In this document: positions 10,542 through 12,185 of the stretch, one piece after another
How the letters are laid out: each line of letters opens with the position of its first letter
How positions within the stretch are numbered: the first letter of the stretch is position 1
DNA from: Alphaproteobacteria bacterium
GTDB lineage: Bacteria; Pseudomonadota; Alphaproteobacteria; MPNO01
Length of the DNA: 64,000 bases
Direction: 5' to 3'
Assembly (NCBI GenBank): GCA_965248835.1
Contig: CBDFLJ010000002.1
Coordinates: 1,280,001 to 1,344,000, forward strand
Position numbers and translations under genes: made by a program
Notes under the pieces: generated by a model
Databases searched by the model: none
What the model was told of the DNA's origin: nothing
Seen by the model: only the letters and a program-made list of their open reading frames with translations

Positions 10542-10951
10542 GCGCGCTGGATCAACTCGATGCGGTAGCCGTCGGGATCTTCAATGAAGGCCATATGAGT
10601 CTGGCTGCCGCCGAACTTCATCGGGCCCGGCTTGCGCGGCACGCTGACCCCCTCGCCTTCGAGCGCCTCGCAGACGCCGTAGACGTCCGGCACGCCGACT
10701 GCGAGGTGGCCGAACGCCGAACCGAGCTCGTAGGCCTCTTCCTGATCCCAGTTATGGGTCAGCTCGATGACCGTCGTTGCGCTCTCATCGCCGTATCCGA
10801 GAAAGGCCAGAGTGAACCGCCCGTCAGGGAACTCCCGGCGGCGCAGAACCTTCATCCCGAGATGGCGGGTGTAGAAATCGATCGATTTATCGAGATCCAG
10901 CACCCGCAGCATCGTGTGAAGAAACCGGTAGTTCGTCGCGGCATCGCTCAT
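10538..10951 (-). CDS. gloA: Lactoylglutathione lyase (glyoxalase I)
   Basis: [20 protein letters not shown] and [14 protein letters not shown] motifs. Confidence 0.95.
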
Positions 10952-11070
10952 ATTTTATCTCCCTCCTCGGCGCACGCGACAGTCTGCTGCCGGCGTGCGA
11001 TCTCCAGAACCATGTCGGCCGCCCTTGCGCTCGGCCGCAGCCCGACTAGGCAAAGCGCCGCGATCGCGCG
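10948..11070 (-). pseudogene. lpxB: C-terminal scar of lipid A disaccharide synthase LpxB
   Basis: Manual translation RAIAALCLVGLRPSARAADMVLEIARR...* resembles the LpxB C-terminus (PSxRAADxVLE); its TGA still overlaps the gloA ATG; syntenic position. Confidence 0.65.
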
Positions 11071-11152
11071 GCTCGGGGGCGGCGGCCAAGCGGCCACCGC
11101 CGCCTCGCTCTGCCTAGCCTGGGGGCGATCACGGGCATCACGGGCGATAGAA

Positions 11153-11224
11153 CGGGCCGACTCAACAATAAGAGCCTATACGCTCGCCATCAGCCGGCGA
11201 AGCACCGGGGTGGACATCGATCGT
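11153..11224 (-). pseudogene. lpxA: N-terminal scar of UDP-GlcNAc acyltransferase LpxA
   Basis: Directly after the fabZ stop: (ACG)IDVHP-GASPADGERIGSYC*VGP versus the typical LpxA start M-x-x-IHPTAIVDPGAxLADGVxIGPYCVVGP; start codon mutated, internal deletion, TGA at 11162-11164. Confidence 0.7.
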
Positions 11225-11230
11225 GTCTGC

Positions 11231-11704
11231 CTATTGCTCGACGATCATCGCGGCGTAGGTCGCCTCGGCAACGACCGTCCCGGCGACGACGGCCTTGCCG
11301 GCGAATTTCCACACGTTCCCGCGCATCTGCAGCTTCTCGACCTCGATGTGCACCGAATCTCCCGGTACGACCGGCTTGCGGAACCGCGCGCTGTCGATCG
11401 ACATGAAATAGACCAGCTTGCCCTCAGCCTCCGGTCCAAGGGTATGAACGACCAAAACCGCAGAGGTCTGCGCCATCGCTTCGATCAGCAGCACCCCGGG
11501 CATGACCTTATGGTGGGGGAAGTGCCCCATGAAATGCGGCTCGTTGACGGATACATTCTTCAAGCCGGTCGCCCGGACGGCCGGCACAAGCTCGAGGATC
11601 CGGTCGATCATCAAGAACGGATATCGGTGCGGAATCATCTCCATGACCCGCGCGATATCCATGCCTTCCAGTGTTTTCTCGGTCTCTACGGTGTCCATCT
11701 TCAT
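11231..11704 (-). CDS. fabZ: 3-hydroxyacyl-ACP dehydratase FabZ
   Basis: IPHRYPFL, KNVSVNEPHFMGHFP, MPGVLLIEAMAQ and FRKPVVPGD motifs. Confidence 0.97.
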   Translation of the reverse strand: MKMDTVETEKTLEGMDIARVMEMIPHRYPFLMIDRILELVPAVRATGLKNVSVNEPHFMGHFPHHKVMPGVLLIEAMAQTSAVLVVHTLGPEAEGKLVYFMSIDSARFRKPVVPGDSVHIEVEKLQMRGNVWKFAGKAVVAGTVVAEATYAAMIVEQ

Positions 11705-12185
11705 CCGCTGTTCTTATCCGCGAGCCGTTTCAAGGTGGCGACGCCGCGAAAGTATTTGCTGGCCGGCATTAACGGGTAGCCGGCCACGTCTCGCCGTCAC
11801 CGACTTTGCGCGTCATCCCCGCTTTCGCGCCAACCTAGGCCCCTTCCCCTTTGCCAATCTTCAAATGTCCAGCGGCATTACCCTGGGCAGCAATGGCGGC
11901 GTACCCACTGAGGGTCGTGCTTCCCAATATTCCGGCTTGGGCAACGACGATGCAACCTTGTCCAAGGATGACGTTGTGCCCGATCTTGAGCAAATTATCA
12001 ATCCTGGACCATCGGCCGATGACCCTATCGTGCCCCGCCCCGCGATCAATGATCGAATTGGCCCCGATCTCAATATCGTCCTCGATGACAACGTGGCTTT
12101 CTGGAGCGGCGCCGCACCGCGGATCGAGCGATCCGCGTCGGCGCCGCTGGACAGTTCCGCACCGGCGAGCCCGGACAGTCGCCGT
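11701..12185 (-). pseudogene. lpxD: Degraded UDP-3-O-acylglucosamine N-acyltransferase LpxD
   Basis: Manual translation: N-fragment [28 protein letters not shown]; out-of-frame join to [57 protein letters not shown] at 11835-11837; frameshift ~11785; C-terminus GYPLMPASKYFRGVATLKRLADKNSG*. Confidence 0.92.

Follow-up and report, generated by a model that had tools for sequence, protein, structure and literature searches.

Bacteria rarely lose lipopolysaccharide (LPS) in nature, and most of the known cases, Sphingomonas and the spirochetes among them, are old lineages in which the individual steps can no longer be read. A further diderm reported to lack LPS, and to have sphingolipids in its outer membrane, is the myxobacterium Sorangium cellulosum, which belongs to a different phylum from the bacterium examined here. 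Here we examine a 64,000-nt stretch of DNA (the window; positions 1,280,001 to 1,344,000 of contig CBDFLJ010000002.1, GenBank assembly GCA_965248835.1) from an alphaproteobacterium in which genes for lipid A synthesis, the Raetz pathway, are reduced to fragments, together with the rest of that genome and the genomes of its relatives. The interpretation that we favor, with a probability of about 80%, is that the genus of this bacterium gave up LPS and would have rebuilt its outer leaflet with sphingolipids by means of a gained locus, independently of Sphingomonas. LPS-free diderms with a sphingolipid outer leaflet are known already, Sphingomonas being the classic case. What is new is a separate, comparatively young case inside an otherwise LPS-making family, in which the trail of pseudogenes can be seen side by side with the gained locus and the exchange of the canonical LptFG transporter pair.

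A limited literature search returned only work on Caulobacter and Sphingomonas, and no lipid A-less alphaproteobacterium outside the sphingomonads. The published genes of bacterial ceramide synthesis are spt, which encodes serine palmitoyltransferase (SPT), the reductase gene cerR and the acyltransferase gene bcerS (JBC 2024). In Caulobacter, CpgABC (the kinase encoded by cpgB, the product of cpgC, which has no conserved domain, and the PgsA-type product of cpgA) makes anionic ceramide phosphoglycerate (CPG), which lets the cell live without lipid A (Zik et al. 2022). An April 2026 preprint (Uchendu, Isom and Klein), the source of the LptF2G2 idea, indicates that LptF2/G2 of the sphingolipid locus are required in Caulobacter for sphingolipid export once anionic sphingolipids are made, and that they bind the single LptB. 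Shared use of LptA/D/E is favored there, and Sphingomonas is described as lacking LpxC, LpxB and WaaA while keeping LptA, LptD and other Lpt proteins, with lpt homologues beside the spt operon. For the Myxococci, the preprint gives a single lptFG pair and possibly an MmpL exporter rather than LptF2G2.

Compared with these systems, our genus is like Sphingomonas in that six Raetz and Kdo-transferase genes are absent (Kdo, 3-deoxy-D-manno-oct-2-ulosonic acid), LptB, LptC, LptA and LptD are kept, and SPT and an LptF/G pair lie in one locus. It differs from Sphingomonas in its setting, a GTDB family and order in which LpxC is present and SPT absent in the other members sampled, and in that fragments of its lpx genes are still there. 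Its head-group genes also look CPG-like, as against the glycosyl type of Sphingomonas. The gene content also matches that of the Caulobacter crescentus locus (spt, acp, cerR, an acyl-ACP synthetase gene, bcerS, cpgABC and lptF2/lptG2): a diacylglycerol kinase (DAGK)-type kinase, an open reading frame (ORF) without a recognizable domain, a run of spt, acyl carrier protein (ACP), reductase and ligase genes, a CDP-alcohol phosphatidyltransferase (CDP, cytidine diphosphate) and an LptF/G pair inside, all matched by family and neighborhood. Caulobacter, however, keeps LPS and both LptFG pairs and loses lipid A only in the laboratory, where fur must be inactivated (Zik et al. 2022); our genus has lost it in nature and entirely, along with the canonical pair.

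The genome of the window (G000) is a 4.89 Mb assembly in two contigs, C1 and C2, with 100% completeness and a G+C content of 66-68%. In a complete genome of the same GTDB family (G007), the order of genes is rseP-bamA-skp-lpxD-fabZ-lpxA-lpxI-lpxB-gloA, and gloA overlaps the end of lpxB, so that gloA marks the far edge of the deletion in our genome. Compared with G007, the window is short of about 0.55 kb of lpxD and about 2.6 kb from lpxA to lpxB. The interval between skp and fabZ is 484 nt and contains no intact ORF of any known Pfam family; the gap between fabZ and gloA is 279 nt. Coordinates of all features are collected in Table 1.

What remains of lpxD is an N-terminal scar followed by the last third of the gene; about 160 codons are deleted internally and the start codon is gone. 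In a tblastn search of the whole genome with G007 LpxD, residues 215-314 align to window positions 12092-11787 with 68.6% identity, and residues 315-339 align to 11787-11713 after a change of frame, with a joint E value of 4.6e-37. An in-frame TAG interrupts the relic at 11837-11835. The N-terminal scar lies just past the skp stop codon, in a different frame, and was found by Smith-Waterman alignment; its score was reached by none of 300 shuffled sequences with either G007 or G006 LpxD as the query, by three with G005 and by 32 with a distant LpxD from the Geminicoccaceae. A functional LpxD would call for an uninterrupted ORF of about 340 aa with PF04613 and a left-handed beta-helix; the relic is without residues 46-214, approximately.

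The remains of lpxA and lpxB are shorter. The lpxA scar, compared with residues 7-30 of three LpxA queries, gave scores reached by 0, 1 and 3 of 300 shuffles, and the lpxB scar a score reached by none of 300. For lpxI, the gap between fabZ and gloA shows no trace (137/300 shuffles reach the score). An earlier reading made from the letters of the window alone (the sequence-only reading) had described lpxD as a relic with multiple lesions, lpxA and lpxB as scars and lpxI as undetectable, with fabZ, skp, bamA, rseP and the lol genes intact, and the analysis bears this out.

Two stretches of about 60 nt within the lpxD relic, 11960-12020 and 11705-11765 on the minus strand, are about 90% conserved between G000 and a second genome of the genus (G002). 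They may correspond to the promoter and ribosome-binding region of fabZ, which is possibly why this piece was not deleted.

Intact copies of these genes elsewhere in the genome would have told against a loss of lipid A. A six-frame Pfam search of G000 at E <= 0.001 gave no matches for LpxC, LpxA domain 2, LpxD-N, LpxB, LpxK or WaaA-N, and positive controls for each search (Escherichia coli, Caulobacter and others) gave matches. Thus LpxA, LpxC, LpxD, LpxB, LpxK and WaaA are all missing. Left-handed beta-helix matches for LpxA/LpxD were obtained (e.g. C2:916153-916677, 23-29% identity) and were rejected as LpxA, since PF13720 is unmatched genome-wide.

Two further loci show clean excision. In G000, bamD lies 180 nt from the ftsZ stop codon, at the position where relatives carry lpxC; no lpxC relic was found in this spacer or genome-wide (best E 0.06-0.8). 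In G007, two conserved genes enclose waaA, lpxK and the gene of an MsbA-like ABC transporter, which scores 542 bits against the 602 required by the MsbA model. The same neighbors in G000 are separated only by an M23-peptidase gene, which is also present at this locus in G006, and the gap holds no relic of waaA, lpxK or msbA. Synteny therefore suggests that MsbA has been lost with the rest of this block.

One could suppose instead that LPS is made after all, that the lpx genes lie on an unassembled or unbinned replicon, and that the fragments are a decayed second copy. The contamination estimate for G000 is 9.5% and the assembly is in two contigs, the third genome of the genus (G001) is only 64% complete, and the genus genomes may be metagenome-derived, the nearest named record being a metagenome-assembled genome (MAG). 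Set against this, the fragments and deletions fall at single canonical syntenic loci (bamA-skp-[lpxD]-fabZ-[lpxA-I-B]-gloA, ftsZ-[lpxC]-bamD and waaA-lpxK), the canonical lptFG pair is likewise gone, three independent assemblies agree, and G002, a single chromosome of 3.87 Mb with 100% completeness, has the same losses. We consider an assembly or binning artefact extremely improbable.

To place the loss, we compared the genus (g1; G000, G001 and G002) with 17 genomes of other genera in its family (f1) and with 21 genomes from four other families of the same order; the order-level comparison covers LpxC alone among the lipid A genes, and LpxK, WaaA, LpxB and LpxD-N were counted within the family. 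LpxC is found in none of the three genus genomes, in 16 of the 17 from other genera (the miss is G018, 93% complete) and in all 21 from the order. For each of the other genes the family count is again 16/17, the misses being G015 for LpxK and WaaA, G004 (79% complete) for LpxB and G008 (79% complete) for LpxD-N. Within the genus, WaaA, LpxB and LpxD-N are found in 0/3, and LpxK only as a fragment in G002 (85 codons, model positions 236-323, 37 bits; three tblastn pieces with 44-47% identity). The members of the genus share this loss of the lipid A genes, which its other sampled relatives do not show. SPT shows the mirror image of LpxC: it scores above the cut-off in 3/3 genus genomes and 0/38 family and order relatives, against 0/3 and 37/38 for LpxC.

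Two genomes from another genus of the family (g6) show smaller gaps. G015 (99% complete) has LpxC, LpxB and LpxD and no match for LpxK, WaaA or KdsA, and in G018 only LpxC is missing. These gaps may be assembly gaps or partial losses.

The machinery that serves the outer membrane is retained. In G000, kdsD-lptC-lptA-lptB form an intact cluster and LptD is also intact, and with them stand BamA, BamD, Skp, RseP and LolCD. Between G000 and G002, codon positions 1 and 2 of the genes for LptC, LptA, LptB and LptD are 84-93% identical and four-fold degenerate sites 69-76%; LptB, LptC, LptA, LptD, BamA, Skp and Lol are under purifying selection. The proposal in the sequence-only reading that the lineage keeps an outer membrane and has selectively lost lipid A agrees with this combination of absent Raetz genes and retained Bam, Skp, Lpt and Lol proteins.

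A gene order commonly found beyond lptB is lptB-rpoN-hpf-ptsN. In G000, a ptsN-like gene for a phosphotransferase system (PTS) EIIA protein follows about 250 nt past lptB (C1:1872616-1874161), and neither rpoN nor hpf lies between.

The earlier reading had also proposed an alternative lipid system for the outer leaflet, with sphingolipid as one candidate, and a full sphingolipid cluster is indeed present. Of 15 class I/II aminotransferase matches in G000, the 11 with E <= 3.8e-35 were scanned for SPT, and one qualified, with a full-length match to NF047599 (590 bits, cut-off 500); other alpha-oxoamine synthases among the 11 are 5-aminolevulinate (ALA) synthase and BioF. Among the NCBIfam models, 'BetaP' gives this SPT its highest score (590 bits); on 'AlphaP' it reaches 474 bits, short of the cut-off of 670. 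The locus around it spans about 15 kb, and Pfam and NCBIfam matches identify genes for a nucleotidyltransferase, a HAD-IB hydrolase, a CDP-alcohol phosphatidyltransferase (CpgA-like), a cytidylyltransferase, a protein resembling the GNAT acetyltransferases (the bCerS candidate), a fatty-acid hydroxylase, LptF, LptG, a DAGK-type kinase (CpgB-like), a 305-aa ORF with no family match in the position of CpgC, SPT, ACP, a short-chain dehydrogenase/reductase (SDR; CerR-like) and a fatty acyl-AMP ligase (733 bits, cut-off 600). Ceramide synthesis is thus represented by an SPT above its cut-off with ACP, the SDR reductase and the ligase adjacent. For CpgABC, the DAGK_cat protein, the domain-less 305-aa ORF and the CDP-OH_P_transf protein stand in matching positions, the comparison being one of families and position. 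The locus is syntenic in G002, with the same order and 72-88% amino-acid identity, and the whole of it is under purifying selection between the two genomes.

The LptF/LptG pair in this locus, located between the hydroxylase/GNAT genes and the kinase/SPT genes, provides the only two LptF/LptG matches in G000, and the same is true of G002. The canonical lptF-lptG pair of the family lies between lptD and pepA. In G000, LptD (56% identical) and PepA (63%) remain, and no lptF/G relic was found between them; a 56-aa lptF/G match there was rejected as an over-extended ORF antisense to a conserved neighbor. The locus pair is 25-31% identical to the pair of same-family genomes, where other orthologues reach 57-83%, and with 203 and 221 bits it falls short of the equivalog cut-offs, 230 for LptF and 240 for LptG. 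Four clades emerge from a tree of 38 LptF/G sequences (ultrafast bootstrap/SH-aLRT support in parentheses): canonical F (100/99), canonical G (100/98), island F2 (97/98) and island G2 (97/97). Our genus has its pair in the two island clades; the pair is both inside the sphingolipid locus and phylogenetically distinct from canonical LptF/LptG. Replacement of the canonical pair by that of the sphingolipid locus lay outside what the window alone could show.

The island LptF was also used as a query against 401 sampled alphaproteobacterial genomes, 44 of which match at E <= 1e-30 (best 44% identity). We inspected the surroundings of the match in 12 of these, the 11 best and G151. In all 12, further genes of the locus flank LptF-LptG. 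The inspected stretch includes SPT in eight of them, but not in G049 or G220 (20 kb each), nor in G363 or G302 (contig ends). Five of the 12 have LpxC, and their LptF/G matches number 4, 4, 4, 4 and 5 (two pairs). Six have no LpxC and two LptF/G matches each, the island pair only. The last, G363, has no LpxC match in an assembly only 84% complete, and three LptF/G matches. The 12 genomes come from nine families and are few and related, so this is a pattern rather than a test; it fits the findings of Uchendu et al. (2026).

Within island F2, our genus branches away from a group formed by five other LpxC-less families (97/97), which implies at least two separate losses among the sampled genomes. 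This separation, together with the LPS-making relatives and the pseudogenes, points to a loss separate from, and younger than, that in Sphingomonas.

More widely, 26 of the 43 other alphaproteobacterial genomes with an island-type LptF (E <= 1e-30) have no LpxC match; they belong to about 15 GTDB families, and some are only 1.6-1.8 Mb in size. They may all be relatives of the sphingomonads, or may stand for several independent LPS losses. Island context was inspected for the best matches only, and below about 35% identity the island type is judged by the LptF match.

An alternative that accepts the loss of lipid A is that another lipid (an ornithine lipid, a hopanoid-rich phospholipid or a glycolipid that carries Kdo on an anchor other than lipid A) fills the outer leaflet, with the sphingolipid locus an accessory as in LPS-making Caulobacter. 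LpxC is kept in five of the 12 island-bearing genomes, so the locus alone does not imply LPS loss, and the Kdo pathway is kept in our genus. On the other side, the distribution of SPT in the family and order sample is the exact reverse of that of LpxC (the LpxC gap in G018 aside), the only LptFG left is of the sphingolipid-locus type, selection maintains the locus throughout, and Caulobacter without lipid A needs exactly such anionic sphingolipids to survive (Zik et al. 2022). We regard a different outer-leaflet lipid as improbable, and continue with sphingolipids as the preferred explanation.

The comparison of G000 with G002 also bears on timing. The same lpxD relic lies between skp and fabZ in G002, where the first 22-41 codons, including the start, are kept and the match resumes at about residue 208; the internal deletion is common to both genomes. 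Over 411 aligned nt the two relics are 70.3% identical, with 74 gap columns. In the flanking genes bamA, skp and fabZ, identity is 65-69% at four-fold sites and 89-95% at codon positions 1 and 2 (BamA is 83% identical at the protein level), and a wider set that includes LptC, LptA, LptB, LptD, SPT and LptF2 gives 84-94% at positions 1 and 2 and 67-76% at four-fold sites. By this measure the relic has evolved neutrally since before the two genomes split, and, since the internal deletion is also shared, the loss predates their divergence. The translation of the relic is still 55-69% identical to LpxD of the family, where functional BamA is 57-64% identical; the relic is about as close to its relatives as functional proteins are, so that lpxD was probably inactivated late on the stem of the genus.

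The leftovers differ between the two genomes: lpxA and lpxB scars are found in G000 and lpxK pieces in G002. In G002 the region past fabZ, which is rearranged and carries DUF1989, UbiD and HpaB, shows no lpxA or lpxB scars; 28-89 of 200 shuffled sequences scored as well. When the sequence-only reading spoke of a bacterium 'caught mid-loss', it was right that fossils remain, but the pathway is entirely gone, the deletion in the relic is common to the sister species and neutral drift has followed. The interpretation is supported, with 'mid-loss' an overstatement, as only debris remains.

Table 1. Features of the window and of other loci in the same genome (G000). Positions without a contig name are window positions; the window is C2:1280001-1344000.
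Feature	Position	Strand	State and evidence
rseP	15082..16257	minus	intact; Pfam Peptidase_M50 and PDZ
bamA	12793..15081	minus	intact; Pfam, five POTRA repeats and Omp85
skp (OmpH)	12189..12848	minus	intact; Pfam OmpH, 6.2e-21
lpxD N-terminal scar, residues ~17-45	12095..12178	minus	start codon lost; Smith-Waterman with shuffles
lpxD C-terminal relic, residues 215-339 of 340	11713..12092	minus	relic; tblastn and translations
fabZ	11231..11704	minus	intact, 157 aa; Pfam FabA, 1.7e-32; 80% identical to G007 FabZ
lpxA N-terminal scar, residues 7-30	11153..11224	minus	stop inside; shuffles, tblastn on fabZ-gloA gap E 0.017
lpxB C-terminal scar, residues ~335-385 of 396	~10987..11169 (core 10990-11067)	minus	scar; shuffles, tblastn on gap E 0.001
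gloA (glyoxalase I)	10538..10951	minus	Pfam Glyoxalase, 2e-24; 82% identical to the G007 gene after lpxB
lolD and lolC/E-type permease	27158..29081 (lolD 27158-27931; permease 27837-29081)	minus	intact; Pfam ABC_tran, MacB_PCD and FtsX
comEC, two overlapping ORFs	5505..7636 (6365..7636 and 5505..6710)	minus	seems split; Competence profile positions 1-149 and 158-268
KdsA	C2:1275115-1275882 (~4 kb before the window)		intact
KdsB	C2:296641-297327		intact
KdsD/KpsF	C1:1870006-1871091		intact
Sphingolipid locus	C2 ~92.6-107.7 kb		Pfam and NCBIfam
305-aa ORF (CpgC position)	C2:102475-103392		no Pfam or NCBIfam match
SPT	C2:103439-104608		above cut-off, NF047599

Beyond gloA, gltA and gltX follow on the plus strand (Pfam). 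The apparent split in comEC could be a frameshift, from a pseudogene or a sequencing error. In a distant MAG labelled Candidatus Odyssella sp., lpxB is closely followed by an 875-aa ORF that carries a CDP-alcohol phosphatidyltransferase domain (16420-19047 of its stretch).

Some of the BamA relatives of our genome are MAGs carrying that label, that of an amoeba symbiont, and with the state of comEC they raise the question of whether LPS was lost in the reductive evolution of a host-restricted symbiont, as in the Anaplasmataceae and Wolbachia, to evade host immunity amid general decay. This is very unlikely: the genome is 4.89 Mb with a high G+C content, the core genes scanned in the window are intact, and the losses affect a single pathway and have their counterpart in a gained biosynthetic locus of 15 kb. 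The Odyssella-labelled MAGs, moreover, have a BamA only 48% identical to that of our genome, and lpxA, lpxI and lpxB are still present in them.

Several results weigh against a sphingolipid replacement of LPS, in addition to the contamination estimate given above. The first concerns Kdo, whose synthesis is kept, which is unexpected without lipid A or WaaA. KdsA scores 400 bits, above its cut-off, in both G000 and G002; KdsB passes NF003952 and adjoins a HAD hydrolase and a UDP-glucose dehydrogenase (UDP, uridine diphosphate); and KdsD/KpsF adjoins lptC-lptA-lptB. With the Kdo genes kept and no WaaA, either Kdo must serve another purpose or the genes, intact as they look, are in the course of being lost. 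As for MsbA, the best remaining paralogue in G000, with 36% identity, reaches 421 of the 602 bits that the MsbA model requires. Within the locus, the bCerS candidate is identified by a weak GNAT match (E 6e-6) and its conserved position, and the CpgC candidate by position only. This candidate, the 305-aa ORF, has the ceramide-kinase-like gene on one side and spt on the other, and its nearest Protein Atlas clusters carry the label 'predicted nucleotidyltransferase' or Tam41-like, with the family on 10-11% of members; this hints at CDP-activated ceramide phosphate as a possible intermediate for the neighboring CDP-alcohol transferase. Finally, no donor of the locus was found (best LptF identity 44%, best SPT identity 62%), and a Protein Atlas search with LptF returned generic LptF/G clusters and no donor.

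Taking these points into account, the course of events that we propose for a sphingolipid replacement is as follows. The locus would have been gained first, most likely by horizontal transfer, as its distribution and the LptF/G tree suggest. The outer leaflet would now consist of ceramides, probably anionic and phosphorylated, made in the cytoplasm. An LptB-LptF2G2 transporter would extract them and hand them to the retained LptC/A/D bridge, as proposed for Caulobacter and Sphingomonas. With an outer membrane that could rest on this locus, the cell would no longer have needed LPS synthesis, MsbA or the canonical LptFG, and these would have decayed. All of this would fall between the split of the genus from its LPS-making relatives and the divergence of G000 and G002.

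A bolder and rather doubtful extension, which we offer tentatively, is that the sphingolipid locus with LptF2G2 could act in Alphaproteobacteria as a portable 'outer-leaflet replacement cassette'. Two export systems would at first exist side by side, and LPS, MsbA and canonical LptFG would then be discarded, repeatedly and independently, with our genus the youngest case here; Kdo might feed a new Kdo-bearing surface glycan or a sphingolipid head group.

The value of this genus is that the steps are legible within one family, where sister genera with LPS and without sphingolipid genes can be set against a genus that has the locus and the remains of lpxD, lpxA, lpxB and lpxK. It lends comparative support to two laboratory claims: that anionic sphingolipids can make lipid A dispensable, and that LptF2G2 passes sphingolipids to a shared LptB/C/A/D machinery. 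The genus and its relatives also form a manageable set in which to ask what other changes the loss of LPS demands, a natural experiment for outer-membrane biology. In practical terms, such bacteria would escape LPS-based assays and resist inhibitors of LpxC or MsbA.

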